DNA of 64,000 nt from an uncultured Candidatus Saccharibacteria bacterium (GCA_964613715.1 CAZTJK010000001.1:98763-162762); one strand, 5' to 3'. Counted from the first letter of the stretch, positions 3,648-48,483 are shown. Notes: generated by a model not told the origin, from the letters alone. Program-made: numbers and translations.

Positions 3648-4007
3648 TCAGGTCATGCTCTTTCTGATGCGTGGCATCAGGAGATAGAACTCCCGGAATG
3701 CCTCATGATACTTGGCATCGTGCACCCGCTTGAACAAGCAATCGAGAAGCTCCGCTGCCTGGCGATAGCTCTCAGACAAGCCGTGCTTCTTGATCGGATG
3801 CAGGATCTCGACACAGAAGACGATCAGCCCATCAAACGTATGATTGCACCCATGAATATGGTGATCGATGCTCTGGCCGATGCGTTTGCCTTCGCATTCG
3901 ATGAAGCAGTCGTCCTCCTCAAAGCGGAGAGACAAGCGGCCTTCCGAATGCTTGACTGCAGCAACGACAATGCAGATAATTTCCTTGCCATATCGCTTTG
4001 CGGACAT
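3648..4007 (-). CDS. Small hypothetical protein (119 aa), monocistronic
   Basis: GAAAGGAGG Shine-Dalgarno 3 nt upstream of the ATG. A hairpin plus T-run terminator lies just downstream on the minus strand (about 3610-3650). The overlapping plus-strand ORF 3636..4049 was rejected. Confidence 0.5.
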   Translation of the reverse strand: MSAKRYGKEIICIVVAAVKHSEGRLSLRFEEDDCFIECEGKRIGQSIDHHIHGCNHTFDGLIVFCVEILHPIKKHGLSESYRQAAELLDCLFKRVHDAKYHEAFREFYLLMPRIRKSMT

Positions 4008-4481: not shown

Positions 4482-4961
4482 TTAAGATGCGGAGCCGGAC
4501 ACGATGCGCGGATTCCACAGTATTGAATCGACATTGCGAGTGCCGTTGAAATTCCAATGATGCTCCACCGGGTAGCCAAGACGGGAGCTGTTGCTTATCG
4601 CCTTGTCATTACCGATATAAAAACCGATATGGGTGTGTGACTCATCGGTGCCGGGCGCCGCTTGTTCCCACACCAGAATGGAGCCGATTTCCGGGACTTG
4701 GATTTCCTGCCAGCCGGATGCTTTCAGGTCTTTGACCGTGCCGAGGACCGTCGCATGTATTTCTGCAATATATCTGAACATCACGAGAATAGCAGATACG
4801 AAAAAGGCGCAGGAGAGCCTGCCGTTTTCGACCACATCCCTTCGCTTATGATCCTTGTCTGTATAAAAATTGCGGAATGCAGTCGAGCCGACACTGTTCT
4901 TCACAACAGCCATATAGGTGTCGAAAACGAACGCATGCCCGATAGTGCGTGCCTGTTCCAT
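4482..4961 (-). CDS. CHAP/NlpC-P60-like putative amidase/peptidase with no signal peptide
   Basis: Cys (LSCAFFV), then GW..I..PE.GSILVW, then HTHIGFYIG, which matches the Cys-His papain-like CHAP pattern. The ATG overlaps the CCA end of the upstream tRNA, so the true start may be internal. Confidence 0.4.
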   Translation of the reverse strand: MEQARTIGHAFVFDTYMAVVKNSVGSTAFRNFYTDKDHKRRDVVENGRLSCAFFVSAILVMFRYIAEIHATVLGTVKDLKASGWQEIQVPEIGSILVWEQAAPGTDESHTHIGFYIGNDKAISNSSRLGYPVEHHWNFNGTRNVDSILWNPRIVSGSAS

Positions 4962-4962
4962 G

Positions 4963-5038
4963 TGGTGGACCCTACCAGATTCGAACTGGTGACCTCCTCA
5001 TTGCAAATGAGGCGCTCTACCAACTAAGCTAAGGGCCC
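4963..5038 (-). tRNA. tRNA-Ala (anticodon TGC) with encoded CCA
   Basis: GGGCCCT-TA-GCTTAGTTGGTAGAGC-G-CCTCA-TTTGCAA-TGAGG-AGGTC-ACCAGTTCGAATCTGGT-AGGGTCC-ACCA, with the G3:U70 pair. Confidence 0.85.
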
Positions 5039-5078
5039 GCGAAAGCGTACTCTAGCACGATTTTTCTTTTTTTCAAAA

Positions 5079-6047
5079 CTATTTTCCGGCGAGCGCTAGG
5101 CCAAGCACATGATCGAGAAATTGCGTCAGTGATGAGCCCACGGCGGTGAGCGCCTTCGGCATGAGCGACTCGCTTGTCAGACCCGGCAAGGTATTCGTCT
5201 CAAGGATATAGATGCCCCGCTTCGGATGCACGATGAAATCTGATCGCGAATAATGCCGCAAGCCCAAGGCGTGATGCGCTTCCATGGCGGCTTTTTGTAT
5301 CAGATCTTTTTCTTTCTCGCTGAAATTGCCCGGACAGATCTCCTCTGATTTTCCTGAATATTTCGCATCTTTGTCGAAAAACTCGCTTGATGACGGATGC
5401 CGGATTTCGATGACGGGCAATGGATAGAGTGCATGCTCGCGAAAATTATCTATTACGCCGCAGGTCGCCTCCTTGCCAGAAATATATTCTTCGACAAGCG
5501 CGATCTCCGAATGCGCCAGTGCATCTTTGAGTGCTGGCAGAATTTCCTTCATCGTTTTCACGAGCGTGACGCCGTGCGACGAGCCGCTTGATACAGGCTT
5601 CACGATTGCCGGCATCGGAAAGCTCTTGAAGATCTGTGCGGCAAGCATCTCGTCTTCCTCTCCTTTTCGCACAGCACGATATATCGGCGTCTTGATATTG
5701 AATTTCTCAAACATGCGCTTGGCAAGGAGCTTGTTCATGGCGATCGCGGATGCAAGCGCGCCGGAGCCGGTATATTTTACCTGCGAATGATCAAGGAGCT
5801 GCTGCAGCTTGCCATCCTCGCCGTATGCACCATGGAGCGCATTGAAAAGTACATCGATACCCTGAAAGGCTTTTTGCGGATGAATACTTGATCCATCGAC
5901 AAGCCATTCGCCTGCTTTGGAGATAATGATATCAGTGGGAATATAGCCTGCAGGCATATGATCGAGCACGCTCTTGCCCGTAAGCATGGATATTTCATGC
6001 TCATCGCTCGGTCCCCCGCGCACCACGCCGACTTTGACCTTTCTCAT
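5079..6047 (-). CDS. ddl: D-alanine--D-alanine ligase
   Basis: ATP-grasp protein with GVVRGGPSDEHEIS near the N-terminus and LETNTLPGLT near the C-terminus. The start was trimmed to MRKVKVGVV. Confidence 0.85.
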   Translation of the reverse strand: MRKVKVGVVRGGPSDEHEISMLTGKSVLDHMPAGYIPTDIIISKAGEWLVDGSSIHPQKAFQGIDVLFNALHGAYGEDGKLQQLLDHSQVKYTGSGALASAIAMNKLLAKRMFEKFNIKTPIYRAVRKGEEDEMLAAQIFKSFPMPAIVKPVSSGSSHGVTLVKTMKEILPALKDALAHSEIALVEEYISGKEATCGVIDNFREHALYPLPVIEIRHPSSSEFFDKDAKYSGKSEEICPGNFSEKEKDLIQKAAMEAHHALGLRHYSRSDFIVHPKRGIYILETNTLPGLTSESLMPKALTAVGSSLTQFLDHVLGLALAGK

Positions 6048-6116: not shown

Positions 6117-6473
6117 TCAGGGATGCTGCTGCACCGGCAGAAGGCTCGTAAATGATGCGAGCGATCGGGATTGCTTAAATTGCTCGAGCAACTGGTCGAT
6201 CGTCATATCAGTACAGGCTGCCTCGCAGGCGAGAAAGACAACAATAAGGTTATCCTCTTCGCTTTCCGCGGTCGGTTTGGCCTCCTGCATTATTGTAGAA
6301 AACTTTTTGTATTCATCATGGGACAGCGCATTCTTGAATCTGGCAGCAATGACTGCTACCGTCTTCCTATTCCTGCGAATGCCCTGCACGAGCTCTTCAG
6401 CGCATGGAAAACATGCGTGCAAGCCGTTCGGCAATCGCCGGGCAATGCCATGTTTTGGACACCTGGCTGCCAT
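6117..6473 (-). CDS. Small Cys-rich (zinc-ribbon-like) protein, paralog 1 of a tandem pair
   Basis: GGAAAGGA Shine-Dalgarno before MAARCPKHG. Shares C..H...ACFxC.EELV and a C-terminal EEDxLIvvFL...RS motif with the gene at 6569..7051. A TTGACA-17-AATAAT promoter lies upstream. Confidence 0.55.
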   Translation of the reverse strand: MAARCPKHGIARRLPNGLHACFPCAEELVQGIRRNRKTVAVIAARFKNALSHDEYKKFSTIMQEAKPTAESEEDNLIVVFLACEAACTDMTIDQLLEQFKQSRSLASFTSLLPVQQHP

Positions 6474-6568
6474 AAAAAATCCTTTCCTCTGGAAAATAGC
6501 TTCTGTCGAGATTATTCTCCTCGAACGGGATTTTGTCAAATAAAAAGAGCCGCCCGCATGGACAGCTC

Positions 6569-7051
6569 TCACTGCAGATAAATATCCGCAAACCGGAAGA
6601 AATATTGCTGCAGATTGATGACAGAACAGATCGACCGCTCAGCACGCACCATAGCAACGACCTCGTTCATTGAGCATCGCTGGTTAAGCGCTTTTGCCAT
6701 AAGAAAGCGGAGGATAGAAATATCTTCGTCTCCGATCTTCATATGCTGAGAATCGACACGAGCAACATCGACAAGCTCGTAATATTCCTCTTGCGAGATA
6801 GCATTTTTTACTGCCCCCGCAATGAGCGCCGCATCTGAGAGGTAAAGCTCAACCAGCTCATCAATGCAGGAAAAACATGCAGTGACGCCCTCCGAAAAGC
6901 TGCGGTGAATCTGCTGATGCTCGCGGCAGAAGACGCGCGAGTTCCATGTGCAGATAGTGCAGGCGACCGACATACGGACAAGCTTGCTGCGGCGTATCGG
7001 CAGGACATGGTATTCCTGCAAATCCGTCTGACTGCAGAAATGGCAGTTCAT
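6569..7051 (-). CDS. Small Cys-rich (double zinc-ribbon-like) protein, paralog 2 of a tandem pair
   Basis: GAAAGGAGG Shine-Dalgarno 4 nt before the ATG. Motifs CHFC, CTIC and CFSC. Confidence 0.55.
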   Translation of the reverse strand: MNCHFCSQTDLQEYHVLPIRRSKLVRMSVACTICTWNSRVFCREHQQIHRSFSEGVTACFSCIDELVELYLSDAALIAGAVKNAISQEEYYELVDVARVDSQHMKIGDEDISILRFLMAKALNQRCSMNEVVAMVRAERSICSVINLQQYFFRFADIYLQ

Positions 7052-7187
7052 ACGGCCTCCTTTCTCCTGATATAAATGACCTTCCTGCTTTCAAAATAGC
7101 GTCTGCAGGCCGGGCTGTCAAACGAAAATTCTTGACTTATTTTTTCTGCATACTAGTATTGGAAGTGGAAAATGATCTTGAAAGGAG

Positions 7188-7532
7188 GTGGATATGCTAC
7201 CGATCCAGGCGAATAAATGCCGCTTGAATGTGACGGAAGATCCGCGAGTGCTCCTCGTCGAATGCAGCCATGGCAATGTTAGCACGGCTGCGATATGCCT
7301 CATGTACATCTTGGATAATGAGGTGCTCGAGCAAGGAGTATTCATGCTCGATGTGAAAGGCCCGAGCGTGCGGACGTTCGGCATCATTTTCGAAAAGATG
7401 GCGCGCAGGGCAGGGTTTGACGCGAAAGAGCTGGCTCGCAAGCTGCCGATCCATGCGGAAAACGGCTTGATCGTGGCCAATCATGGCTTCGACAGTGACC
7501 TTTTCGCGATTGGCAAGGAAATTCCTGGATAA
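7188..7532 (+). CDS. Small hypothetical protein (114 aa), putative member of the FFxP/LTxxQV small-protein family
   Basis: TTGACT-16-TAGTAT promoter, GAAAGGAGG Shine-Dalgarno and its own terminator. Core motif CRLNVTEDPRVLLVECS...AAICLMYIL. Confidence 0.55.
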   Translation: MDMLPIQANKCRLNVTEDPRVLLVECSHGNVSTAAICLMYILDNEVLEQGVFMLDVKGPSVRTFGIIFEKMARRAGFDAKELARKLPIHAENGLIVANHGFDSDLFAIGKEIPG

Positions 7533-11691: not shown

Positions 11692-11763
11692 ATATATGCG
11701 CTAACTCCCCCATGGACTGCTCCATAGGGGTTATTATCGGCATTCTACGCTCTCTTTATAGGT

Positions 11764-11790
11764 TTGACAATAGATAATCTATGATATTAT
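11764..11790 (+). promoter_or_regulatory. Putative sigma-70 promoter driving the retron ncRNA; its -35 overlaps a divergent uvrA promoter
   Basis: TTGACA, a 15-nt spacer, then TATTAT, ending about 7 nt before a1. On the opposite strand TTGTCA-17-TAGAAT points at uvrA. Confidence 0.4.
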
Positions 11791-11796
11791 GTTCAC

Positions 11797-12018
11797 TGAA
11801 CTTGTAAATTAAAAACCACTGCAGTATTTTTGTCTTTTTGTAAAAAGACTTCCGGGATATCTTTGACCTCAGGCGTTATATGTCTGGTGTCCATAGTAAG
11901 AAAAAATAAGAATAAAATCTTAAATTTCTGCTTAAAATAATCCTTGTCCTTTGAGAGGTTAGTGTCTTGAGAGGTAGGTAGAGTCAAATCTATCAACAAT
12001 AGCAACTTTACAAGTTCA
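11797..12018 (+). ncRNA. Retron msr-msd-like non-coding RNA bounded by 12-nt a1/a2 inverted repeats
   Basis: a1 tgaacttgtaaa (11797-11808) is the exact reverse complement of a2 tttacaagttca (12007-12018). There are internal hairpins (for example gtctttttgtaaaaagac). It lies immediately upstream of the retron-type RT in an AT-rich island. Confidence 0.5.
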
Positions 12019-12132
12019 TTGGGAGTGGTTTACGTTATTGTCCACCCTATAGTACAACTATGGAACTCATACTTTCATTGTTGCTTATTTTGCTCATCCT
12101 ACGGGAAAGCCAAATAAGGCACTAACACCTGA

Positions 12133-13011
12133 GTGGATAATGAAATTTTTTCTTCAAAAAAAGAACTTTTAAAATTTCTCAAGATCAGAGAAAACTTTTT
12201 GTATAATAATATCAAAGCTAAATATCAGGAAAAAAATTACAGAAAAAAAATGGTGGTTCGCGTCAAATCACAAAACCGAATAACAAATTAAAAGATGTTC
12301 AAAGAACTATACTGGATAAAATATTAGTCTTATCCCCGCAATTACCATGCGTGTATGGGTTATCAAAAAAGAAAGGCGTTGTCGCTAACGCACAAACCCA
12401 CCAAATTAACTATCCTTTTCAATTACTAACATTGGATATCAAAGATTTTTTCCCAAGCATTTCTAGAAAAAAAAATTACAGATATTTTTAAAAAAAATAA
12501 ATTTAACAAAGAAAACTCGGCAATTCTTACAAAACTATGTACTGTGAATGACTCACTGCCGCAAGGGGCGCCCACAAGCCCTTATTTGGCATCGTTGGTC
12601 TGTGAAAAAATGGATAAAAAAATCTATATTTACTGTAAGAAGAAAAAATTTATTTATACAAGATACTTTGATGATATTAGTATTTCTGGAAAAGACGTGT
12701 TGCTTGAAAAAAATATAAAAGATATTGAAAAAATTATCCAACAGCATGGTTTTATGCTAAATAATGATAAAAAATTTAGTTTTTTTGAAGCTGAAGATAA
12801 AATAATCACCGGTATAATAATTACAAATGGTAAGCTATCTGTAACTAAAGAATATAAAGATTCGATCAAGATTGCTTACAAAAATTATATTTTAGAAGAT
12901 AACCTTAAAAACCGAAATTTATTTTCGGGAAAATTTGGTTTTTATTTTCATGTGAATAAAAAAGATGCGTTGGATTTTTTACAAGAGTTAAAAAATAACA
13001 TTAATTGTTAA
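12133..13011 (+). pseudogene. Retron-type reverse transcriptase, frame interrupted by two compensating poly-A indels (possibly a pseudogene or homopolymer sequencing errors)
   Basis: Read across three frame segments the RT motifs appear in order: KKNGGSRQITKP, LKDVQRTILDKIL, VYGLSKKKGVVANAQTH (NAxxH), LDIKDFFPSI, LPQGAPTSPYLASLVC, YTRYFDDISI (YxDD) and ITGIIIT (the retron VTG-like motif). The frame shifts at an A7 run (12230-12236, one A short) and returns at an A9 run (12467-12475, one A extra). About 30% GC. Confidence 0.6.
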
Positions 13012-15042
13012 TTATTTCTTTTTCTTCCCCACCTTCCCCTCAATAGCCCGGATTTCATCCCGCAATATGGCTGCGGTTTCGAAATCGAGCATTTTCACTG
13101 CAGCGTTCATCTGTATCTCCTTTTGTTTGATGAGCTTGGCCGGGCTCTTTGCCGCAGCCGCTTCGTCTATGCGAAGCAGCTCGGCCACGGCCTTGTCATG
13201 GTCAGAGCGCAGATGCTCGGTGATGTCGTGGATTTTCTTGATGATGGTCTTCGGCGTGATGCCATGCTTGGTATTGTACGCTACCTGCTTTTCCCTGCGG
13301 CGATTCGTCTCCTCAAGGGCGCGCTCGATGCTGCCCGTCATGTTGTCGGCATAGAGCACGACACGGCCGGCGGCATTCCTCGCCGCACGGCCGATGGTCT
13401 GGATGAGCGAGGTATCGCTGCGGAGAAAGCCCTCTTTGTCCGCATCGAGTATGCCGATGAACTCTACCTCGGGCAGGTCGAGGCCCTCGCGCAAAAGGTT
13501 CACGCCGACGAGACAGTCGAACTTTCCTTTGCGGAAATTGGTCAGGATGTCGATGCGGTCTATGGTCTTTATCTCGCTATGCAGATACTCGGCCTTCACG
13601 CCTTTTTCTTTGAGATATTCCGAAAGATCCTCGGCCATTTTCTTGGTCAGGGTCGTCGCGATCACGCGGCCGTCGCGCTTCACGATCTTTTCCGTCTCGT
13701 CAATGAAGTCGTATACCTGGGACTTGTTCTTCCCCTTTACCTCGGTAATCGGCTTGATCTCGACAATCGGGTCCACGAGGCCCGTCGGACGGATGATCTG
13801 CTCTACGGTATTCTCGGAATGCTCGCGCTCGAAATCGCCCGGCGTGGCCGAAGTATAGATGACCTGGTTCACCCGATCCTCAAACTCCGGGAACTGCAGC
13901 GGGCGGTTGTCCTTGGCGGAGGGCAAGCGGAAGCCGTAGTCCACGAGCGTCTTTTTGCGCGAAGCATCGCCTGCGTACATGCCGCGCAGCTGCGGCACTG
14001 TGACATGCGATTCGTCGATGACGGTCAAGAAATCCGGGCTGCCATCTGCTTTGTGCGGGAAATACGCGAGCAGGGTTTCCGGCGGTTCGCCGGCTTTTTT
14101 GCCCGAGAAATGCCGCGCATAATTCTCGATGCCATTGCAATAGCCGACCTCGCGGATGAGCGAGAGGTCATGCGTGGTACGGCGGCGCAAGCGCTCGGCC
14201 TCGAGCTGCTTCCCTTCTTTCTTCAGCTCCGCGACGCGCTCATCGAGCTCTATCTTGATGCTTTCGATCGCGCGCTTCTGCTCGTCTTTGTTCGTCACGA
14301 AATGCTTGGCCGGAAAGATGAAAATTGCTTTCAGATTGTCTTCCGTAATTTTCCGCGAAACTGAGTCAATTTTCGTGATGCGGGAAATCGCATCATCCTC
14401 AAAATCCACTCGAATGAGAATTTTCTCGCCCGTCGGCATGACTTCGACAGAGTTGCCCACCGCGCGGAATTGGCCGGGCTTCACATCAGTATTGGTCCTC
14501 GTGAAATACACGCCGATGAGCCGCTTGATGAGATCCTGGCGGGACTGCTTGTCGCCCACTGATAGCTTGATATTCGTTTTCTCGTATTCTGCCGGGGAGC
14601 CGAGGCCGTAGATGCAGGAAACGGATGCGACGATGATGACGTCTTTTCTCGTGAGCAGGGCCTGGGTGGAGGCATGGCGCAGGCGGTCTATCTCCTCGTT
14701 TATCATCGCCTCTTTTTCTATGTACGTGTCGGTAATCGGCATATACGCCTCCGGCTGATAGTAGTCGTAATAGGAGACGAAATAATGCACGGCATTGTCC
14801 GGGAAGAACTCCTTGTACTCCTGCGCGAGCTGGGCCGCGAGCGTCTTGTTGTGCGCGATGACCAAGGTCGGCTTCTGCGCTTTTTCAATGACATTGGCAA
14901 CGGTAAAGGTCTTGCCGGTGCCGGTCGCGCCGTAGAGTATCTGCTTTTTCAAGCCCTTTTTGAGGCCCTCTGCGAGGGATTTGATGGCCTCTGGCTGGTC
15001 GCCTGCGGGCGCGTATTCGTTCTTGATCTTGAATCTGTCCAT
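13012..15042 (-). CDS. uvrB: Excinuclease ABC subunit B
   Basis: Helicase motifs (GATGTGKTF), a UvrB interaction domain and a C-terminal UVR coiled coil. 676 aa. Confidence 0.9.
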   Translation of the reverse strand: MDRFKIKNEYAPAGDQPEAIKSLAEGLKKGLKKQILYGATGTGKTFTVANVIEKAQKPTLVIAHNKTLAAQLAQEYKEFFPDNAVHYFVSYYDYYQPEAYMPITDTYIEKEAMINEEIDRLRHASTQALLTRKDVIIVASVSCIYGLGSPAEYEKTNIKLSVGDKQSRQDLIKRLIGVYFTRTNTDVKPGQFRAVGNSVEVMPTGEKILIRVDFEDDAISRITKIDSVSRKITEDNLKAIFIFPAKHFVTNKDEQKRAIESIKIELDERVAELKKEGKQLEAERLRRRTTHDLSLIREVGYCNGIENYARHFSGKKAGEPPETLLAYFPHKADGSPDFLTVIDESHVTVPQLRGMYAGDASRKKTLVDYGFRLPSAKDNRPLQFPEFEDRVNQVIYTSATPGDFEREHSENTVEQIIRPTGLVDPIVEIKPITEVKGKNKSQVYDFIDETEKIVKRDGRVIATTLTKKMAEDLSEYLKEKGVKAEYLHSEIKTIDRIDILTNFRKGKFDCLVGVNLLREGLDLPEVEFIGILDADKEGFLRSDTSLIQTIGRAARNAAGRVVLYADNMTGSIERALEETNRRREKQVAYNTKHGITPKTIIKKIHDITEHLRSDHDKAVAELLRIDEAAAAKSPAKLIKQKEIQMNAAVKMLDFETAAILRDEIRAIEGKVGKKKK

Positions 15043-15114
15043 GCTTTGACTGAATGAATCATTATGCTACCCTGACCAGAGAAAAGCAATCAGATCTTTG
15101 GAAAGGAGGCTGAA

Positions 15115-15666
15115 ATGGAAATACGCGAAGCGCGGCTGAGGCTTATCACAGCGCTGAAGCAGATTGAAGTGAGGGCGATAAGAGGACATGCGCTCGTCCG
15201 CCCGTTCTTTCGGCGGCAGGAATCTGAAGCATCGGTGTTTGCGCGGCAGGAAGGTCGGAAAGCGCATTATCTCGCCCACTGTCGCTTGAGCGAGGACGAA
15301 TACTGGAAATTGCACATGTTTTTCTCTCCACTCATGGTGTTCGAAGGGCTCACGGAAGCGCAAGTTCAGCTCTGCATGCGGCTCCATGATGAATTGCGTG
15401 GAGAACAAAGGCTGATCCGTGATGAACCGTTGATCAAGCTCTTCGAGGCGGCACGCTCGCAAGAGGCTATGATGCTCGGCGATGATTTTCCGAAAGTCAT
15501 CGAGCAGGTATTCCGCGCAAAGATGGCGGTAAAGGCTGAAATGCAAAGATCGAACAGGTTCTGGCAAAAATTCCTGTGCTCTCTTTCATTGATCGAGCGC
15601 GAGGATTTTCTCCGGGAATGGGGCGATCGTCTTCCATTCCTACATGATATCGATCTTGATGAGTAA
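15115..15666 (+). CDS. Small-protein family member A (183 aa)
   Basis: TTGACT-16-TACCCT promoter, GAAAGGAGG Shine-Dalgarno and its own terminator. Core CRLSEDEYWKLHMFFSPLMVFEGLTEAQVQLCMRLH, paralogous to the gene at 15768. Confidence 0.6.
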   Translation: MEIREARLRLITALKQIEVRAIRGHALVRPFFRRQESEASVFARQEGRKAHYLAHCRLSEDEYWKLHMFFSPLMVFEGLTEAQVQLCMRLHDELRGEQRLIRDEPLIKLFEAARSQEAMMLGDDFPKVIEQVFRAKMAVKAEMQRSNRFWQKFLCSLSLIEREDFLREWGDRLPFLHDIDLDE

Positions 15667-15671
15667 ATACT

Positions 15672-15704
15672 GCCAGCGGCTAATACCCGCTGGCTTTTCT
15701 TTTG
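15672..15704 (+). terminator. Rho-independent terminator after gene A
   Basis: Hairpin gccagcg...cgctggc followed by ttttctttt. Confidence 0.55.
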
Positions 15705-15729
15705 ACTCGCCGGACCAGTGTGCTACTCT
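15702..15729 (+). promoter_or_regulatory. Sigma-70-like promoter of gene B
   Basis: TTGACT, a 16-nt spacer, then TACTCT. A GAAAGGAGG Shine-Dalgarno lies downstream. Confidence 0.5.
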
Positions 15730-15767
15730 TTTGGAAGAAGTATCCTGATCCTTGGAAAGGAGGAAGC

Positions 15768-16316
15768 ATGACGCTTGCACTCGTGGAAGAACGGCTGGTA
15801 GGCGTGCTGCGAAATATCGCCGCTCAAAAAGCGGAAGAAATGCAACGGCCGATCGAGATATATTTCGAGATACGGAAGAAAGCATGGCCGATCAACAATG
15901 CAGTGCGCAGGCATTTTATGCGGCACTCTAAGCTGAATAAGTATCAGTTCGAGCGGCTTGATATGTTTTTCGCGCCGCTCGTCATTCCTGCCTGCCTTTC
16001 CCGGCCACAGGTCAATATCTGCATCGAGATCTATGCTCGGATGTGCCCACCCGGTACAGACTATGGCAATGAGGAGCTCATGGCCCTCAAGCAGAGCATA
16101 GACTACTGGCACGCATGGAAATCTGCCGCAGTCGATGAGCATTTTATCGGGCACCTGTCCGAGGTGCTGCAGGAAAAGCTGTGGTTCAAGCAGGAAATGC
16201 GTGAAGCAAGAAAGGAATATGAGGCTCGGCATCGGCCGAAGATGCTGGGAGCTGAATTCCTCGCATCAGTAGGAAAATTTGCAAAGCGATTGCTTCGGAA
16301 AAAGCGCGCCGGCTGA
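15768..16316 (+). CDS. Small-protein family member B (182 aa)
   Basis: Core SKLNKYQFERLDMFFAPLVIPACLSRPQVNICIEIY, aligns with A. Its own promoter, Shine-Dalgarno and terminator (gccggctg...cagccggc followed by gttttt). Confidence 0.6.
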   Translation: MTLALVEERLVGVLRNIAAQKAEEMQRPIEIYFEIRKKAWPINNAVRRHFMRHSKLNKYQFERLDMFFAPLVIPACLSRPQVNICIEIYARMCPPGTDYGNEELMALKQSIDYWHAWKSAAVDEHFIGHLSEVLQEKLWFKQEMREARKEYEARHRPKMLGAEFLASVGKFAKRLLRKKRAG

Positions 16317-16416
16317 CGAAAGTACAGCCGGCGTTTTTCATTTGACGCCGGAAATATAGGAGGTACAATTCCCGAGGATATATTGCTGTTCATTCTCGCT
16401 GTGGAAAGGAAGATAT

Positions 16417-16743
16417 ATGGGTCAGCGCAGTGCCGGCGTTTCAAAAAAGAAACCGAGGGTGGCGCATGCTCATCCCTGTAGCAAGCTGTCGCCCGAGGTA
16501 CAGCGATGCGAGAAGGATTTCAAGCTGAACCTCTTTGATGCCTGCTGCCTCGTGCAATTCTTCCGGCCGTTTCCGGTGCCCCTGAAACTGTCGAAAGAGC
16601 TCATCGCGTTCCTTGTCGAAAGCAAGAAGCGCAATTCCCTGACGCAAGAAGAGGTTTGCTCGATCCGATTCGCCCTGACCGTGCTGAAACACGAGAAGGA
16701 CCAGGTCGCGATCGCGCATATCATCCGCAGCAAAGTCGCCTAA
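16417..16743 (+). CDS. Small-protein family member D (108 aa)
   Basis: TTGACG-16-TACAAT promoter. Motifs KDFKLNLFDACCLVQFFRPFP and LTQEEVCSIRFAL. A terminator follows (gccgcactgacatgcggc followed by ttttt). Confidence 0.55.
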   Translation: MGQRSAGVSKKKPRVAHAHPCSKLSPEVQRCEKDFKLNLFDACCLVQFFRPFPVPLKLSKELIAFLVESKKRNSLTQEEVCSIRFALTVLKHEKDQVAIAHIIRSKVA

Positions 16744-16857
16744 GACATCTTATATACAAGCCGCACTGACATGCGGCTTTTTACCTGCTCGTTTGACTTC
16801 CATCCCTCCTCTGCTAGTCTTCGAACAGAGCAGGACATACACGAAAGGAGGCAGCTC

Positions 16858-17178
16858 ATGTCAAAGAAAAAAGCACGCAATCAAGGGATACGAGCTATGC
16901 GATATTATCGCCGCAAGTACAACCTTAATACGCATTTTATGAGCTATTTCCCAGGAAAGTATCTCGTTGCTAGTAATGGAAAGTTCCCCAAGGATTTATC
17001 CATGAATGAAGTAGTGAAGCTCGCGGAGCTTTATAAGCAGGCGCTTGATAGCGCCCCGTTCCGCAAGGCATTGCTACGCTTCGCGCGCGAGTTCGCACAA
17101 GAGCTCAAGCGAAAAAAGCTCAAGACTGCTCCGGAAGGAGGACACCCGTTCCCCAAGCCGGATCATCTTGATCCATAA
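16858..17178 (+). CDS. Small basic hypothetical protein F (106 aa), monocistronic
   Basis: TTGACT-16-TAGTCT promoter, GAAAGGAGG Shine-Dalgarno and a terminator at 17180-17210. Family membership is unclear. Confidence 0.5.
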   Translation: MSKKKARNQGIRAMRYYRRKYNLNTHFMSYFPGKYLVASNGKFPKDLSMNEVVKLAELYKQALDSAPFRKALLRFAREFAQELKRKKLKTAPEGGHPFPKPDHLDP

Positions 17179-17179
17179 T

Positions 17180-17210
17180 GCCAGCCTGATTCAGGGCTGG
17201 CATTTATTTT
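17180..17210 (+). terminator. Rho-independent terminator after gene F
   Basis: Hairpin gccagcc-tgattca-gggctggc followed by atttatttt. Confidence 0.55.
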
Positions 17211-17237
17211 GACTTCCGCTTCCCCATTCCATATACT
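17209..17237 (+). promoter_or_regulatory. Consensus-like sigma-70 promoter of gene E
   Basis: TTGACT, a 17-nt spacer, then TATACT. Confidence 0.55.
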
Positions 17238-17273
17238 CCGTGATAGGAAGTTCTATTCGAAAGGAGGCGCCAC

Positions 17274-17555
17274 ATGGCACCCAAAACAGGAGAAAAAGAG
17301 GAATCGAAGTTCGAGCTCGCCCAGCGGGAGCCGCAAATAGTTGAGAAATATCAGAAGGATTTCAAGCTCGACGATGCCGAGGTATATCGCTTGCGATGCT
17401 TCTTCACTCGAGAGATCATGCCAGATAATCTGACCGAAAAGGAAATCCGCATGTGCATCGCGATGCATGATTTTCTGGCGCGAGGGTTTGCCTCGCCGAA
17501 TTTCGAGTGGCTCAAGGCCGTCGTAGGCCGGAAAATGATCGATCGCGGAATTTAA
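17274..17555 (+). CDS. Small-protein family member E (93 aa)
   Basis: Motifs QKDFKLDDAEVYRLRCFFTREIMP and LTEKEIRMCIAMH, aligning with both D and A/B. Terminator at 17564-17596. Confidence 0.55.
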   Translation: MAPKTGEKEESKFELAQREPQIVEKYQKDFKLDDAEVYRLRCFFTREIMPDNLTEKEIRMCIAMHDFLARGFASPNFEWLKAVVGRKMIDRGI

Positions 17556-17588
17556 AGCCGCAGAGCCGGATAGTAATGTCCGGCTTTT

Positions 17589-18800
17589 TTATTTTTGATA
17601 TGTCGAGAGAAATTCTTTTTTGTATTGTGCGAAAGTTCCGTCGAAAATCGACTGGCGAATCTTTTTCACCAGATTGACGATAAAATGCAGATTGTGGATG
17701 GACGCGAGCGTACCCGCGAGCATTTCCTTGCCATGGAAGAGATGCGAGACATACGCCCGCGAATAATTTGTGCAGGTGTAGCAGGCGCAGCCCTCGTCTA
17801 TCGGCGACAGGTCCGTGCGAAAAGCAGCATTCGAGAGATGGACCTTCCCTCTCTTCGTATATGCCGTGCCATTTCTGCCAAGACGCGTCGGCAGCACGCA
17901 ATCAAAAAGATCGACGCCATTCTCGATGCCCATGAAGAGGTCTTCCGGCTCGCCGATGCCGAGGAGATGCCGCGGCTTTTCTTCCGGCAATATCTCGTTC
18001 ACCCATTTGACCGCAGTCGACATGTCTTCCTTGGCAAATGAGCCGCCGATGCCGAATCCGTCGAATGTTTTGCCATCAACTTCCATTTCGGAAATCACCT
18101 GCGCCGATTTCTTGCGCAGCGCTTCTTCCCTGCCGCCTTGCACAATACCAAAGAGCGCGATCTTCCCATCCATATTGAGCTTGATATGCTCTTCGAGGCT
18201 GCGCTTTGCCCACTTGTGCGTGCGCTCGAGCGCCTCTTCTTGATAGCGGAAATCCTCCGCAGGCGAGGTGCATTCGTCGAATGCGAAAATCATATCGGCG
18301 CCGATATTGTGCTGGATGCGGATTGATTTTTCCGGCGTCATGTAATGTATCGTGCCATCGAGATGCGATTTGAAGGAGACACCGTCTTCGCCGATCTTTG
18401 CAAGGCGCGGCGCATCGGTATCATCGAAGCGCTCGGGAATGAGCAGATTCGGATCGATAGGTTTCAGCACCTTTGAAATATCCTTGCCATATGCAGCACC
18501 GAGCGAGAATACCTGGAAGCCGCCGGAGTCCGTCATTGTCGGCCCATGCCAGTTCATCATGCGGTTTAAGCCACCCATGGCTTTCACCGCTTCATCGCCC
18601 GGCTGTAGATAGAGATGATAGGTATTGGCAAGGACCACCTGTGCACCCGCATCGCGTACCTGCTCGGGATTCAAGGATTTGACCGTCGCCTTGGTGCCGA
18701 CCGTGACGAATGCCGGTGTTTCGATCTGGCCATGCGGCGTCTCAATGATCCCCGCGCGGGCCATGGTGCCGGAAAGTTTTTTTTCGATAGCGAATTTCAC
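17589..18800 (-). CDS. tgt: Queuine tRNA-ribosyltransferase
   Basis: Zinc-site CxCxxC...H (CACYTCTNYSRAYVSHLF) and an LGIGEPEDL TIM-barrel motif. Likely GTG start with a TATGCT box close upstream, suggesting a leaderless message. Confidence 0.85.
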   Translation of the reverse strand: MKFAIEKKLSGTMARAGIIETPHGQIETPAFVTVGTKATVKSLNPEQVRDAGAQVVLANTYHLYLQPGDEAVKAMGGLNRMMNWHGPTMTDSGGFQVFSLGAAYGKDISKVLKPIDPNLLIPERFDDTDAPRLAKIGEDGVSFKSHLDGTIHYMTPEKSIRIQHNIGADMIFAFDECTSPAEDFRYQEEALERTHKWAKRSLEEHIKLNMDGKIALFGIVQGGREEALRKKSAQVISEMEVDGKTFDGFGIGGSFAKEDMSTAVKWVNEILPEEKPRHLLGIGEPEDLFMGIENGVDLFDCVLPTRLGRNGTAYTKRGKVHLSNAAFRTDLSPIDEGCACYTCTNYSRAYVSHLFHGKEMLAGTLASIHNLHFIVNLVKKIRQSIFDGTFAQYKKEFLSTYQK

Positions 18801-25976: not shown

Positions 25977-26030
25977 TGCGATCCTCCCACATGGAAATAA
26001 CGACACTAATAGAAATATACCATGTAATAT

Positions 26031-26759
26031 CTATTTGTCAAGATAGTGGCGCAGCGTGTAGAGCCAGTCTTCTTCCCCTTCTTCATTCGTACGCTTCTGC
26101 TCGAAAAGCCATTCGAGATACCGGCGATCCGTCTTCAGCACTTCTTCAATAGTCTTGCCATTGTATTTGCCAAAATTGAACTTGGTGAAGAGCACCGGCG
26201 TGCGAGAAATCTCCATCATGCGCTCGATCGCTGCCGCTTCGCTCCCCGCCTCTGCTGTCATTTTTGCAAGCAGCCGCGGAAATATTGCTGCAAGCACGCG
26301 CACATCCCCCTCGGCATCATGCGCCGTGCCTGTTACATCAAGGTGCAGATAGTAGCGGAGAAATTGCAGGCCGTATTCAGGAATGGCATTCTCCTTGTCG
26401 AGATAGCGCGCCATGCGGAAGGTGCAGATGAAGCGCGGCACGGAAATACCTTCAGACTCGAGCATGCTGATATCGAATTTCGCATTATGCGCCACGAGTA
26501 TTCCCTGCTCAAGCAGCTTTTGCAGATCCTTTGCCATGCTACTCCCAGCAAATGCTGGCTTGTCCGCCAGCATCTCATTCGTAATATGATTGATGCTCAT
26601 AGACTTCACAGACACCGGCATTGGCGGCTTGAAGTATTCAGTGCGTATCGTCTCCCCTGCCTGATAGCAGACTTGGCAAAGCCGGTCTGTGCCAAGAATA
26701 TTTCCAGTCGTTTCAGTGTCGAGGAAAATGAGCGGTAAATTATTAAATTTAGATTGCAT
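26031..26759 (-). CDS. DnaQ-like 3'-5' exonuclease (DEDDh family) with a C-terminal extension
   Basis: Exo I motif LIFLDTETTG and Exo III motif HNAKFDISML. Confidence 0.65.
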   Translation of the reverse strand: MQSKFNNLPLIFLDTETTGNILGTDRLCQVCYQAGETIRTEYFKPPMPVSVKSMSINHITNEMLADKPAFAGSSMAKDLQKLLEQGILVAHNAKFDISMLESEGISVPRFICTFRMARYLDKENAIPEYGLQFLRYYLHLDVTGTAHDAEGDVRVLAAIFPRLLAKMTAEAGSEAAAIERMMEISRTPVLFTKFNFGKYNGKTIEEVLKTDRRYLEWLFEQKRTNEEGEEDWLYTLRHYLDK

Positions 26760-26788
26760 TTCTTTTTTGCTATTAAAAACAGTTGCTT

Positions 26789-27490
26789 TTATTTCTGAGT
26801 AATTAAAGCATACTTTTGAAGATTTTCTATAATTTTTGGTCTAACTATCTTATTTACCCAAATAGAATATAACCAAAGAATTGTATTATAAGTTTGAGTC
26901 TCAGTCATAATATCTCTTACAAAAAATAAAGCTGCTGCATTTTGTTCAATTAATTCAATAAATGCGACATGTAATGGTATTAATGCCGAATTTTCAATAG
27001 TATTTAAATTTTTTACTTTCAGGGCAAATTCTTCTAACATGTTTAATAAACTTATATGTAAATCTAAGATTGTATCATCAATTTTTGCTGTTTCAGGATT
27101 AAAAAATATTAATAACTGATTAGTAAAATTGCTTGAATCTCTCTGCATTAAATCACTAATAATATGTTTTTCGATATGGATGCTAGGAAACAGAAAAGAA
27201 CTGTTTTTCTTTAAAAAAGCCTTGCTAGTGTGTATCCACTCCAAAAGAATTTTTTCGCGAAAAAAAGTTACCTGGTCTATTGCAGCCGCAGTAAGATCTT
27301 GTTGTTTTTTGTAAAAATAGTTTACTATAGCAATAATTAAAGAAAAAGCACCAAAACTACTTAAAACTTTTTGAATAATATCTAACTGAAATTCAGATAA
27401 AGTTTTTAATCCTATCAAATAACCAATTAAAAATAACAGAAAACCTGCAAAGCAAAGAAGGAGAAATGTTACGATGTCTTTTTTTATCAT
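26789..27490 (-). CDS. Hypothetical 2-TM membrane protein encoded in a second AT-rich island (about 28% GC)
   Basis: Two N-terminal TM helices, then a soluble domain of about 160 aa. A TAAAAT box 12 nt upstream of the ATG. Its composition matches the retron island rather than the flanking genes. Confidence 0.45.
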   Translation of the reverse strand: MIKKDIVTFLLLCFAGFLLFLIGYLIGLKTLSEFQLDIIQKVLSSFGAFSLIIAIVNYFYKKQQDLTAAAIDQVTFFREKILLEWIHTSKAFLKKNSSFLFPSIHIEKHIISDLMQRDSSNFTNQLLIFFNPETAKIDDTILDLHISLLNMLEEFALKVKNLNTIENSALIPLHVAFIELIEQNAAALFFVRDIMTETQTYNTILWLYSIWVNKIVRPKIIENLQKYALITQK

Positions 27491-27517
27491 ATCTTTATCG
27501 TAATTTTAACATATTTT

Positions 27518-28087
27518 ATGTATACTATACTTATGAAAAAGCTTCTCTATTACATAGCTATACTCACGATCATCGTGGTCGGATTCCATTATCTCTCCCC
27601 TTACCTGCCAAAAGCTGGCGCGCCGCAAGCGGCAGCATTTGCTGATCCAAAAAATGGCACGTACACTATCGAGAATGAAAAGGTTACGCTCGCGAGCGGC
27701 AAAGCGGAGCAGAGCGTGACGCCAGATTCAAGTTCGAAAGAGATCACGGAATATTTCGGGAATGTTGCTACGGGTGATGTGAATGGCGATGGTCTGCCAG
27801 ACAAGGTGTTTCTTCTCGTGCAGGCAGGCGGTGGCAGCGGCACCTTTTACTATATTGCCGTAGCGCTTGGTGCGAAAAGCGGCGGCTATACGGGTACAAA
27901 TGCAGTATTTATCGGCGACCGTATTGCTCCGCAAAGCACTGAAATAAACAAAGGAAATATCATCGTAAACTATGCAGACCGCCTGCCGGGCGAACCTTTC
28001 ACTGCCGAGCCGACCATCGGCATGTCAAAATATTTCCGAGTGACGAATGGCGTGCTTGCCGAGATAAAGAATCCGAATTCGGATTAG
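27518..28087 (+). CDS. Membrane-anchored or secreted hypothetical protein
   Basis: N-terminal TM or signal segment. GDVNGDGLPD-like motif. 189 aa. Confidence 0.45.
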   Translation: MYTILMKKLLYYIAILTIIVVGFHYLSPYLPKAGAPQAAAFADPKNGTYTIENEKVTLASGKAEQSVTPDSSSKEITEYFGNVATGDVNGDGLPDKVFLLVQAGGGSGTFYYIAVALGAKSGGYTGTNAVFIGDRIAPQSTEINKGNIIVNYADRLPGEPFTAEPTIGMSKYFRVTNGVLAEIKNPNSD

Positions 28088-29751
28088 AAATTCTTCTTCA
28101 CAAATAAGCGCACGATGCGCAACTCTTCATATGAATAGCCCTCGCCGATCTTTGCCTTCACCGGCGCAAGGAGGAAGTCGCGGTTCTCGCCGTACATGTC
28201 GCGGAATAGCATATATATTTTCTTGAATTTCGCCGCGGACACTTCATTCTTCAGATGAGCAATATCGAAATCCGGCTCTTTCTCGATGATCTTTTCTATA
28301 TGGTCGAGGACCGTGCCAAGCTTCACGCCCCGATGCTCCATGATCTCGGCAAGGCCCATCCCCTCGGCAAGCATATTGCGCGTCTCCTCGATCGGCGAAA
28401 TGCGCGCCTTCTTCCCTTTCTTGGCTTTGGCCCCGTCTGCAGGCGCGACTTTTTCCAAAAATTCTTTCTGCTTCTCTCGTATCTGATTGTCATCAAGCGA
28501 GTGGAGCCATGCCGCATCGCGATCACTTGCCTCCTGCAAGTCTTCATCAAAAAGAGCGATGTCTTCGCGGATCTCGAGCGCATTCTTGTTGAGCCCGACA
28601 AGGCGCAGGCCGGCAAGCGTGCGCACGCGCGAAAGCGCGACATAGCCCATGCCACGCTCGAAGGATTTCGAGAGATCCACTTCGACGGCGTCCAAGCTCA
28701 TGCCCTGGCTCTTGTGCACGGTGATCGCCCAGGCAAGGCGAAGCGGATACTGCGTGATCATGGCTTTCGTCTTCCCTTCTTCCTCCACGACCCAGGATTC
28801 TTTTTCCGGCACGATAACTTTGCCATTGGTAAGCATAATTTTCGGGCCGAATGCATCGCAGGCGATGACTTTGCCAAGCGTGCCGTTTGCATAGCCGGCA
28901 TCGAAATTATTCTTCACGAACATCACTCGCGCGCCAACTTTGAGACGCAGCATTTCCGGAGCAAGGCAGCTTTTTTTGAGCGCATCCACAAGCGGCTTCC
29001 TGCCCTTGTCTTCCATCTGATAGGCGAAGAGCTGTCCGGGCAATTTATTGAGCTCGGTATCATTGATACTGTCGACGTTCACATTGTGCGTATGCAGGCG
29101 CGTCGGCTCGATATCGCCGAGCTTGGCATCGTACCTCGCCCGCAAATGGCCAAGAGATTCTTCCGAAAGCCGGCTGGCGCGGATACCATTTAGAATCCTA
29201 ATGAACGCATCGTCCTTGTGGCGGAACTGCTCTTCGAGATAGCAGATTTTCAGATCGAGCTTTTTCCAGGTCTCCGATTTATAGGGAAAGAGCGATTCGG
29301 GCTCGCCCGGCTTTGATACCGGCGGGAGCTGGAAAAAATCGCCACAGAGCACGATCTGCATGCCGCCGAATGGCAATTGGTTCCGCTTCAGGTGCCGCGC
29401 AATGCGCTCGACAAGATCGAGCCGGAAATGATGCAGCATGGAGACCTCGTCGATGATGAGCACCTGCGTAGCCTTCAAGCGGTCCTGCAAGTATTTCTTT
29501 TCTTCAAGACTTTCGAGATCGTATTCAGTGAGATGGCTCGCGATGCCAAGCCCGCTCCAGGAGTGAATGGTCATGCCGCCCATATGGGTCGCAGCGATGC
29601 CGGTCGAAGCCGTGATACCGACCTCAACGCCTTTCTGGCGAAGATACTTTATATATTCATTCAGGAGATATGTCTTGCCGCTGCCTGCCGCGCCCGTGAC
29701 ATAGCAGTTGTATCCCATCTTCAATATGTCGAGCGCCTCTTTCTGAGTCAT
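28084..29751 (-). CDS. PIF1/RecD-like SF1 ATP-dependent DNA helicase
   Basis: Walker A GAAGSGKT, a DExx box LIIDEVSM and a C-terminal helicase fold. Start trimmed to MTQKEALDIL. Confidence 0.7.
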   Translation of the reverse strand: MTQKEALDILKMGYNCYVTGAAGSGKTYLLNEYIKYLRQKGVEVGITASTGIAATHMGGMTIHSWSGLGIASHLTEYDLESLEEKKYLQDRLKATQVLIIDEVSMLHHFRLDLVERIARHLKRNQLPFGGMQIVLCGDFFQLPPVSKPGEPESLFPYKSETWKKLDLKICYLEEQFRHKDDAFIRILNGIRASRLSEESLGHLRARYDAKLGDIEPTRLHTHNVNVDSINDTELNKLPGQLFAYQMEDKGRKPLVDALKKSCLAPEMLRLKVGARVMFVKNNFDAGYANGTLGKVIACDAFGPKIMLTNGKVIVPEKESWVVEEEGKTKAMITQYPLRLAWAITVHKSQGMSLDAVEVDLSKSFERGMGYVALSRVRTLAGLRLVGLNKNALEIREDIALFDEDLQEASDRDAAWLHSLDDNQIREKQKEFLEKVAPADGAKAKKGKKARISPIEETRNMLAEGMGLAEIMEHRGVKLGTVLDHIEKIIEKEPDFDIAHLKNEVSAAKFKKIYMLFRDMYGENRDFLLAPVKAKIGEGYSYEELRIVRLFVKKNF

Positions 29752-29848
29752 GGAGTGATTGTAGCATCCTGCCTTTCTGCCTTCAGGCGAAAAAGTGAAT
29801 AAAATGTTGAAAAAGAAAAACCCGCGGATCAAAGATCCGCGGGCCGCA

Positions 29849-30343
29849 TCAGATAAACTGTTTCTGAAACCACAGGTTATACAGATGCATGAACTTGATA
29901 TAGAGCGCGCGCCATTCATCGGTCGTCCGGTCAAACAGCATCTCCGTCGGGCGGATAATGCGGGCGCACTCATCAAGATCGCGCGCAAGCTTGCCTGCCA
30001 AAGCTACAAACTCCTTGCGGAGCGGCAGGCTGATAGCCACGTCGCTTTCGAGCACCCGCATGCATTGGTCGAAATTCACCACGCGCATGAAGGCATTCTT
30101 GAGCACCATATCACGACTCGGATCATCGGATGACAAGCTGAGAAACAGCTGCCAATGATCCTCGAAACCGACGAGATACCGCTTGATCAACAGCGCTATC
30201 TTGCCAGCAATCGGCTTTGTATCCGGACGAGCCGGTAGAGTGCCGAACGTGAAGACGAAATATCCAACTTCATAGACGAACCCGAGCAAAAGCGACACCG
30301 CTTCCACGAGGATCTCGAATATGAAATAGATGATATCGAGCAT
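29849..30343 (-). CDS. Hypothetical protein (164 aa)
   Basis: AAAGGAGG Shine-Dalgarno 5 nt before the ATG. A hydrophobic N-terminus. Confidence 0.5.
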   Translation of the reverse strand: MLDIIYFIFEILVEAVSLLLGFVYEVGYFVFTFGTLPARPDTKPIAGKIALLIKRYLVGFEDHWQLFLSLSSDDPSRDMVLKNAFMRVVNFDQCMRVLESDVAISLPLRKEFVALAGKLARDLDECARIIRPTEMLFDRTTDEWRALYIKFMHLYNLWFQKQFI

Positions 30344-47964: not shown

Positions 47965-48483
47965 TCAACTCGCCTTGCGATGCACCAGCATTTCCTTGAC
48001 GCGGTCAAAATTGATGAGCCGCTCGACGATCTTATTACCACCCGCAGTGCGCACCATAAGGGCGAGACCTTCGAGATTCATCCATTCGGCCGAAAAGAGT
48101 GTCAGCTGGATGACTGCCTCGCTTGCCTCCTGAGGCAAATCTGAGGAAAATGCGACAATCGTATCACTACCCCGTATCCCGCCCCTGATCCTGCCGGCTC
48201 GGAATTGTTTCAATTCCGAGATATTCCAGGCATCAAAACCGGAATGCAGCAAACCTGAAGCAATTTTAAGTGCTCGCCGCCGGTATCGCTCATGCTTGCG
48301 CTTGGAACAGACGCCAACAGATTCGTCGATGACGCAAACTCCCTTGCGAAACACGATCAGGTAGCCACCCTTTTTGCGGCCATAGATGAAATGGAACATC
48401 TGCTCGATATTCCGAAACATGCGCCAAAATAAAAACACAAATGCATGCCGTTCATCCAGGGAATCGAAGCCTGCCGTAACCAT
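47965..48483 (-). CDS. Hypothetical protein (172 aa)
   Basis: TTGACT-17-TATTAT promoter, AAGGAGG Shine-Dalgarno and a minus-strand terminator downstream. Confidence 0.5.
   Translation of the reverse strand: MVTAGFDSLDERHAFVFLFWRMFRNIEQMFHFIYGRKKGGYLIVFRKGVCVIDESVGVCSKRKHERYRRRALKIASGLLHSGFDAWNISELKQFRAGRIRGGIRGSDTIVAFSSDLPQEASEAVIQLTLFSAEWMNLEGLALMVRTAGGNKIVERLINFDRVKEMLVHRKAS

Follow-up and report, generated by a model that had tools for sequence, protein, structure and literature searches.

Evidence for an undescribed, Patescibacteria-restricted family of small proteins in a tandem gene array between uvrB and tgt of a Saccharibacteria genome

In the orphan and poly-immunity arrays of polymorphic toxin and contact-dependent inhibition systems, divergent paralogs encoding small cytoplasmic proteins stand in tandem in a variable slot, evolve rapidly and change in copy number. 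A locus of comparable outline lies in the stretch of DNA analysed here (the window), which covers 64,000 nts from an uncultured Candidatus Saccharibacteria bacterium (GCA_964613715.1 CAZTJK010000001.1:98763-162762). Between uvrB (13012-15042, minus strand) and tgt (17589-18800, minus strand), five open reading frames (ORFs) on the plus strand, named A to E, form a lineage-specific tandem array. Each gene is a cassette of its own and at least four of the five encode members of a protein family, small, soluble and helical, that is undescribed and found in Patescibacteria only. The name LHMFFSP family was coined for it in this analysis. Tandem divergent paralogs, a variable slot and rapid change are common to this array and to the poly-immunity arrays, the families having been compared via Pfam only. 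Unlike the latter, the LHMFFSP loci lack a nearby toxin or secretion gene and a Pfam immunity match, are usually single-copy and keep the core of the protein across classes.

The AGNOSTOS catalogue contains 54,343 lineage-specific gene clusters in Patescibacteria (PMC9132574), so that an orphan family is in itself nothing unusual in this group. Set beside the catalogue by description only, the LHMFFSP family resembles these clusters in being unannotated and confined to Patescibacteria. It differs from clusters of one species or genus by spanning several classes with a near-invariant core of 15 residues and by forming, in one lineage, a tandem array of apparently individually transcribed cassettes with turnover. 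With small helix-turn-helix (HTH) regulators, sigma-70 region 4 and LuxR domains, the proteins have in common their size, helical content, mostly basic charge and a helix starting L-T/S-x-x-E/Q, but they match neither the profiles nor the folds of these domains and their predicted loop does not have HTH geometry. Prophage “morons” are similar in having one promoter and one terminator per gene and in their tight packing, which in the array goes as far as a T-run abutting the next -35 box. The array, however, has no phage context, its base composition is native, its slot is vertically inherited and no family member occurs in viral collections.

Membership and extent of the LHMFFSP family

Genes A (15115-15666, 183 aa) and B (15768-16316, 182 aa) encode long-type family members, of which A retains the canonical LHMFFSP and B carries LDMFFAP. 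Gene C (16417-16743, 108 aa) encodes a short, divergent member with LVQFFRPFPVPLKLS, and gene E (17274-17555, 93 aa) a short member with LRCFFTR...NLTEKEIRMCIAMH. Gene D (16858-17178, 106 aa, isoelectric point (pI) 10.3) is an orphan and possibly a degenerate family member. The core consists of L-x-x-F-F-x-P, then, 5-6 residues on, of L-(T/S) and a helix (LHMFFSP..GLT in A, LDMFFAP..CLS in B and LVQFFRP..KLS in C). In E the core reads LRCFFTR..NLT, with the proline replaced, and the core region of D has only FMSYFPGKY...DLS, with indels.

A and B can be aligned, as a first-pass annotation of this DNA had claimed, with 43.5 bits over 146 residues in BLASTP. The other pairwise BLASTP scores are 35.4 bits for A-E, 24.6 for B-E, 21.9 for B-C and 20.0 for C-E, and D matches none of the other four. 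With phmmer against the 390 ORFs of at least 50 aa in the window, A-B (4.5e-8) and A-E (4.2e-6) were recovered, C was marginal and D had no match. A profile made of 75 relatives from outside the source genome and its nearest relative scores A at 73.7, B at 51.4, E at 49.6 and C at 20.1 bits (E 1.4e-5 for C over the 390 ORFs), with the caveat that the external members were themselves retrieved with a profile containing A, B, C and E. The same profile gives D 5.2-5.6 bits and finds none of the remaining ORFs of the window. The external members are self-consistent, 49 of 81 carrying the exact heptapeptide LHMFFSP. Gene C also has independent BLAST matches, to P0005 (7.7e-5) and to g158 of locus L054 (5.9e-6). 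In a control with 2000 shuffles per protein, the real score was reached in none for A, B, C and E and in 7 for D. Because of these profile scores and of the shuffle control, the homology of A, B, C and E is beyond doubt.

Hence the core motif that had been attributed to all five genes stands for four of them, for which the shuffled-sequence check of its significance holds, and not for D (5.6 bits). By hhalign, D is collinear with the core over residues 11-60 (P 0.004, probability 8%) and it has no relatives within the family set. D may be an orphan, decayed family copy; its promoter and Shine-Dalgarno (SD) module, which is common with E, supports an origin by duplication. The expanded family with individual promoters thus comprises four certain members and one possible. 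A KDFKL element that had been described for E and D does occur in a pair of genes, at 16417 and 17274, the third and the fifth, and the fourth is not involved. The element quoted as LTQEEVCSIRFAL in the gene at 16417 had been misplaced: LSKELIAFL, which immediately follows FFRPFPVPLK, is the counterpart of LTEKEIRMC in the alignment. Further copies had been proposed at 7188 (plus), 3648 (minus) and in the pair 6117/6569; by phmmer and the external-only profile, these have no similarity to the family and have in common with it only a strong SD and the promoter style. The genes at 6117-6572 and 6569-7051, both on the minus strand, encode adjacent Cys-rich small proteins, which are paralogs of each other only (28% identity, E 4e-11) and have no Pfam match; the upstream gene of this pair has a perfect GAAAGGAGG SD.

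The family was only uncovered by an exhaustive profile search of 1.84 billion representatives, which returned 82 proteins at E<=1e-3, one of them a low-complexity false match. Three word-indexed homologue searches had found almost nothing beyond the source genome and one relative. The family consensus is QxxVxxxY-x4-L(T/N)-x2-E-x3-LHMFFSPxRVPxGLTxxEVRxCIxLYPxR, and a C-terminal LPxEL...MTRxxFxxGIxKFL is present in most members. Lengths vary from 73 to 248 aa, with three architectures: a short one of ~100-160 aa, one with an extra N-terminal domain of ~100 aa and a long “A/B-type”, whose insertions precede the C-terminal helix. When one genome per GTDB species was scanned, 19 loci emerged, all 19 in metagenome-assembled genomes of Patescibacteria (Minisyncoccia, Parcubacteria, Paceibacterota and Saccharibacteria); the scan used the exact peptide LHMFFSPxR, which divergent members elsewhere could escape. 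A metagenome scan added 24 loci, and no member was found in IMG/VR, among the INPHARED phages or among the PLSDB plasmids. The family therefore appears to be restricted to Patescibacteria while spanning several of their classes.

The only label that members carry at source is “hypothetical protein [Patescibacteria group bacterium]”. Proteins A-E and ten members from elsewhere were scanned against Pfam, PHROGs, NCBIfam and PADLOC with no family match, the best PADLOC values (E 0.008-0.07) corresponding to short partial matches to differing models. Searches of PDB sequences with three profiles returned only noise, the top match being a His-tag artefact, and a literature search for the motif found no paper. 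Because no curated family, solved structure or publication matches it, the family is new at the level of both family and fold. Novelty here means that curated family libraries and solved structures hold no detectable relative; it does not mean that a new mechanism was demonstrated. In practice, the motif and the profile provide an annotation for ~80 clusters now labelled “hypothetical”.

The proteins appear to be soluble, helical and mostly basic. The median pI of the family is 9.25 and 64% of members exceed 8.5. As had been stated, A-E have no signal peptide and no transmembrane helix, the maximum KD19 value being 1.25. The motif His, Ser and Arg are not retained in B, C and E, leaving the family without conserved catalytic residues. 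The AlphaFold2 (AF2) model of A is all-helical (predicted local distance difference test score (pLDDT) 78.6) and that of E, computed from an alignment of 81 sequences, has four helices with a pLDDT of 79.6 overall and >90 in the core. A reading of the xxxLHMFF segment as a PIP-box, binding the sliding clamp, was rejected: no Gln is conserved where a PIP-box requires one, and the motif is part of a predicted helix in a folded domain.

Expression cassettes, paralog age and slot turnover

The five genes had been described as separately signalled, and each indeed has a promoter-like site, an SD and a folding hairpin. The order in the cassettes is a -35 box TTGAC(T/G), a spacer of 16-17 nts, a -10 box TAnnnT, a leader of ~35-45 nts, the SD, the ORF and a hairpin with a U-run; a TGC directly precedes the -10 box in A, B and D. 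A perfect SD, GAAAGGAGG, lies 5-6 nts upstream of the ATG in A, B, D and E, and C has the imperfect GGAAAGGAAG instead. The five hairpins have folding energies of -12.4 to -22.5 kcal/mol and z-scores of -2.8 to -5.0, and the TTTGAC of the next cassette directly abuts the T-run of the preceding terminator. The sites probably act as promoters, to judge from their match to the consensus.

These signals are rare in the rest of the window. GAAAGGAGG occurs 8 times in 64 kb where 0.5 is expected, with 4 of the 8 in the array, and TTTGACT-N14-18-TAnnnT occurs 4 times where 0.28 is expected, always in the array. Furthermore, the leaders of A and B have in common a 26-nt direct repeat, 81% identical, of the form GATC(T/C)TTGGAAAGGAGG, and D and E have in common TTTGACTTCC and a 32-nt SD/start block. 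The units were therefore duplicated along with their expression signals. At any plausible start, an SD strength of at least 5 is reached by at most ~14 of the 67 ORFs of the window and, across all loci, by 37% of family genes versus 11% of their neighbours, counts that depend on heuristic gene calls and start choices.

The closest relatives of A are P0002 (48% identity), at the same position in locus L004, and P0006 (37%). B is closest to P0028, in the same slot of L054 (35-37%), C to P0005 (37.5%) and E to P0041 (35%). Thus A, B, C and E are each nearer to proteins of other genomes than to their neighbours in the array, which is therefore old and not a recent amplification. Its base composition (GC 0.49-0.55) is native, which argues against recent transfer. 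The expansion is unusual, as had been suggested: one copy is the rule at other loci, two are present in L004 and L015, and the four of the window, with D as a possible fifth, are the maximum seen.

In L054, the order is uvrB, genes for 173 aa, 158 aa and a 96-aa orphan, then tgt, FKBP and LOG. In L055/L056, uvrB is followed by genes for ~77, 40, 189 and 182 aa before tgt, FKBP and LOG, and in L004 by genes for 186 and 76 aa and then by other genes. Each of these slot genes has its own TTGAC promoter, SD and hairpin, and the long subfamilies retained differ among the slot-bearing genomes. The differing content of the slot and the differing subfamilies point to birth-and-death turnover. It can also be seen that the uvrB-tgt slot gathers genome-specific small orphans without detectable relatives, at 3719-4009 in L054 (96 aa), at ~4895-5117 (~77 aa) and 5133-5255 (40 aa) in L055, and D in the window.

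Rapid evolution, another of the earlier suggestions, is well supported. Slot orthologues are 32-48% identical versus 82-89% for UvrB and 79-81% for Tgt. Between the window and L054, the identity is 89% for UvrB, 81% for Tgt, 69% for LOG and 57% for FKBP, versus 32% for A and g173 and 35% for B and g158; the similarity of the DNA (80%) spans uvrB and the entire intergenic region of 72 nts and ends at the SD of A. The comparison of four independent pairs of syntenic genomes gave 42-48% identity for the family member versus a median of 58-78% for its neighbours, and this common lag makes fast evolution a family-wide property. The descriptive account as a whole (a real family with four members here, an old array, fast evolution and slot turnover) is in our view very probably correct.

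The 72-nt block between uvrB and A contains two overlapping, divergent promoter-like sites (15046-15089), which stand back-to-back with adjacent -10 boxes, each -35 box lying inside the leader of the other gene. This block is common to L054, L055 and the window, even though the identity of the proteins encoded downstream is only 32-37%. RNA polymerase binding at the two sites is possibly mutually exclusive.

Possible functions of the array

The LHMFFSP proteins may be non-enzymatic binding or regulatory modules. Their near-invariant core would dock on a conserved cytoplasmic partner, either a nucleic acid or a component of the transcription or translation machinery, and the paralogs would differ in specificity or input through their variable N- and C-terminal helices. 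This part of the proposal is tentative and we grant it rather less than an even chance of being right. The consensus -35 box, long leader and perfect SD could ensure strong and separately controllable expression amid mostly SD-less housekeeping genes, the overlapping promoters of A and uvrB might compete for RNA polymerase, and the paralogs would have expanded by birth-and-death.

Several points weigh against a binding or regulatory role. Outside the uvrB-tgt lineage, the neighbours of family genes are nrdAB, gyrA, clpB, a DEAH helicase gene, mraZ/rsmH, gdh or genes for a histidine kinase and response regulator, which indicate no single pathway. The AF2 models have no recognisable DNA- or RNA-binding fold, and a binding partner or nucleic-acid binding is only putative. 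Regulators rarely evolve so fast or turn over in copy number, a pattern that better fits conflict genes, and genes with such strong promoters and SDs are more likely to encode abundant proteins than regulators present in few copies. In addition, the promoter assignments and the competition for polymerase are deduced from consensus sequences. A role in DNA repair was not retained on the basis of the recurring uvrA/B adjacency (window, L004, L054, L055, L024, L015 and L032): since this adjacency reflects shared synteny in one lineage, it is not functional evidence, and the neighbours in other lineages are unrelated.

Turnover and evolutionary rate are better explained if the array is engaged in conflict, its proteins serving for immunity, as antitoxins, against phages or in host interaction under an arms race, with each paralog neutralising a different effector and the slot gaining and losing cassettes. 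The tandem divergent paralogs, the changes in copy number among close genomes with orphans interspersed in the slot and an evolution much faster than that of the neighbours all agree with such a role, as do the autonomous, strongly expressed cassettes, the patchy distribution within Patescibacteria and the small, soluble, non-enzymatic nature of the proteins. However, no toxin-like, secretion or defence gene adjoins any of ~30 distinct loci within 5-6 kb on either side and no PADLOC model or Pfam immunity family (Imm, SUKH, etc.) is matched. In most genomes a single copy stands amid housekeeping genes, the core motif is near-invariant across distant classes, which is unusual for the specificity surfaces of immunity proteins, and the viral, phage and plasmid collections contain no member. 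We consider a conflict array, the main alternative, possible but unlikely. A type II toxin-antitoxin module was rejected, each gene having its own promoter and terminator with no bicistronic pair and no match to a toxin family.

Other explanations fare worse against the same data. By eye, L(T/S)xxE(V/I)xxC and the helix after it resemble the entry motifs of LuxR and sigma region 4; small, helical, mostly basic proteins and a first gene on a divergent promoter overlapping that of uvrB could likewise be expected of classical HTH or sigma-region-4-like DNA-binding transcription factors, or of anti-sigma factors. The first-pass annotation had loosely compared the LT..QV..C element to an HTH, a resemblance that did not survive: among 15 members, no HTH, sigma or anti-sigma model of Pfam or NCBIfam is reached at E<=1, PDB profile searches are empty, and the AF2 models have a loop of 10-11 residues where a tight turn of 3-4 residues is required. 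It is highly improbable that the proteins belong to these classes. That the array was carried in by a mobile element or survives from a prophage, in the form of “moron”-like cassettes inserted beside uvrB, is barely plausible. The cassettes are autonomous, their expression signals are unlike those of the mostly SD-less host genes and, on the far side of uvrB, a 30% GC island contains a degraded reverse transcriptase, but the GC content of the array is 0.49-0.55 versus 0.30 for this island. Neither an integrase nor att-like sites were found and the only repeats are the modules of the untranslated regions; four genomes with UvrB 82-89% identical have genes in this slot, which indicates vertical inheritance, and IMG/VR, INPHARED, PLSDB and PHROGs contain no member. 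Finally, that the ORFs or their common motif arose by chance is practically out of the question and has been disproved for A, B, C and E, even though D has no detectable homologue and C resembles the others only weakly in pairwise alignments: no shuffle out of 2000 reached the real scores, 80 external relatives have the conserved motif, the AF2 models are confident and all five genes have a complete anatomy.

The binding or regulatory role and the conflict reading could both be taken further, in a proposal that we think doubtful. The proteins would be either interchangeable specificity or adaptor subunits, particular to Patescibacteria, of a core machine, for instance RNA polymerase, the ribosome or a repair complex, or a new family of immunity or counter-defence proteins of episymbionts. 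Either way, uvrB-tgt would be a locus devoted to diversification, at which new cassettes arise, each with a copy of the promoter/SD module, and others disappear. If so, the SD-led cassettes with consensus promoters would represent, compared with the mostly SD-less housekeeping genes, a separately controlled expression class. Patescibacteria genomes being tiny, four to five strongly expressed orphan paralogs would be costly, which implies selection. The combination of a near-invariant core amid fast evolution, slot turnover and atypical expression signals provides a tractable entry into regulation, conflict or host interaction specific to the candidate phyla radiation.

Coordinates of the signals and other observations

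All elements of the five cassettes are on the plus strand. The promoter-like site of A (15046-15073), from the sequence and a pattern scan, consists of TTGACT (15046-15051), 16 nts and TACCCT (15068-15073), with TGC before the -10 box. It is overlapped by that of uvrB on the minus strand, with the -10 box CATAAT at 15061-15066 and the -35 box TTGCTT at 15084-15089. The 5′ untranslated region/SD module of A, GATCTTTGGAAAGGAGG, is at 15093-15109 and its predicted terminator at 15672-15703, an 8-bp GC-rich hairpin with a T-run that leads into the -35 box of B (-15.9 kcal/mol, z -5.0). In B, the same pattern scan gave TTGACT-16-TACTCT at 15702-15729, again with TGC before the -10 box; the corresponding module, GATCCTTGGAAAGGAGG, occupies 15747-15763, and the hairpin of the terminator (16306-16339), followed by a T-run, overlaps the stop codon (-22.5 kcal/mol, z -4.9).

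Gene C deviates from the others in its TTGACG (TTGACG-16-TACAAT, 16342-16369) and in its imperfect SD, read from the sequence at 16403-16412, and its terminator (16758-16784) is the weakest (-12.4 kcal/mol, z -2.8). The promoter-like site of D, TTGACT-16-TAGTCT with TGC before the -10 box (16793-16820), is identical to that of E in its first 10 nts. The SD of D is at 16843-16851, in the 32-nt block that is 75% identical to that of E, and an 11-bp hairpin at 17177-17208 is followed by a T-run into the -35 box of E. In E, TTGACT-17-TATACT (17209-17237) precedes an SD at 17259-17267. The terminator at 17562-17597 (-16.9 kcal/mol, z -4.3), located between the convergent E and tgt, may be usable by both.

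Outside the array, the ORFs of the window are mostly devoid of an SD and in many a TATAAT-like box stands just a few nts upstream of the ATG, which gives them a leaderless look (for example at 1071 minus, 4463 minus, 19676 plus, 25777 minus and 38395 minus). Perfect long SDs are found, in addition to the array, only at small orphan genes (3648-4007, 6569-7051, 29849-30343 and 47965-48483 on the minus strand and 7194-7532 on the plus strand). A literature search on SD and leaderless translation in Patescibacteria found no paper combining all terms. The orphan of 112 aa at 7133-7532 on the plus strand (ORF 7194-7532) has an array-like module, with TTGACT-16-TAGTAT and the leader GATCTTGAAAGGAGG; its protein is unrelated to the family and has no Pfam match.

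An island of ~30% GC, in a genome of ~52%, lies between uvrA and uvrB (11750-13010) and contains a frameshifted reverse-transcriptase remnant, with ORFs at 12133-12291, 12351-12491 and 12544-13011 (RVT_1, E 3e-10). A link between this island and the array through a diversity-generating retroelement was rejected, as the reverse transcriptase is frameshifted and no repeat of at least 20 nts joins the two. At the position of the island, L004 (6680-7840) encodes a short kinase with HisKA and HATPase domains (237 aa) and a 131-aa response regulator with a receiver only and no output domain, and in L018 and L021, too, family genes have a homologue of the L004 kinase beside them. A second stretch of lower GC (0.405) is present at 26000-28100, with an ExoX/RNase_T-like exonuclease gene (26031-26759, minus strand) and two ORFs without a Pfam match, and is adjoined by a gene for a PIF1-type helicase (28084-29988, minus strand).

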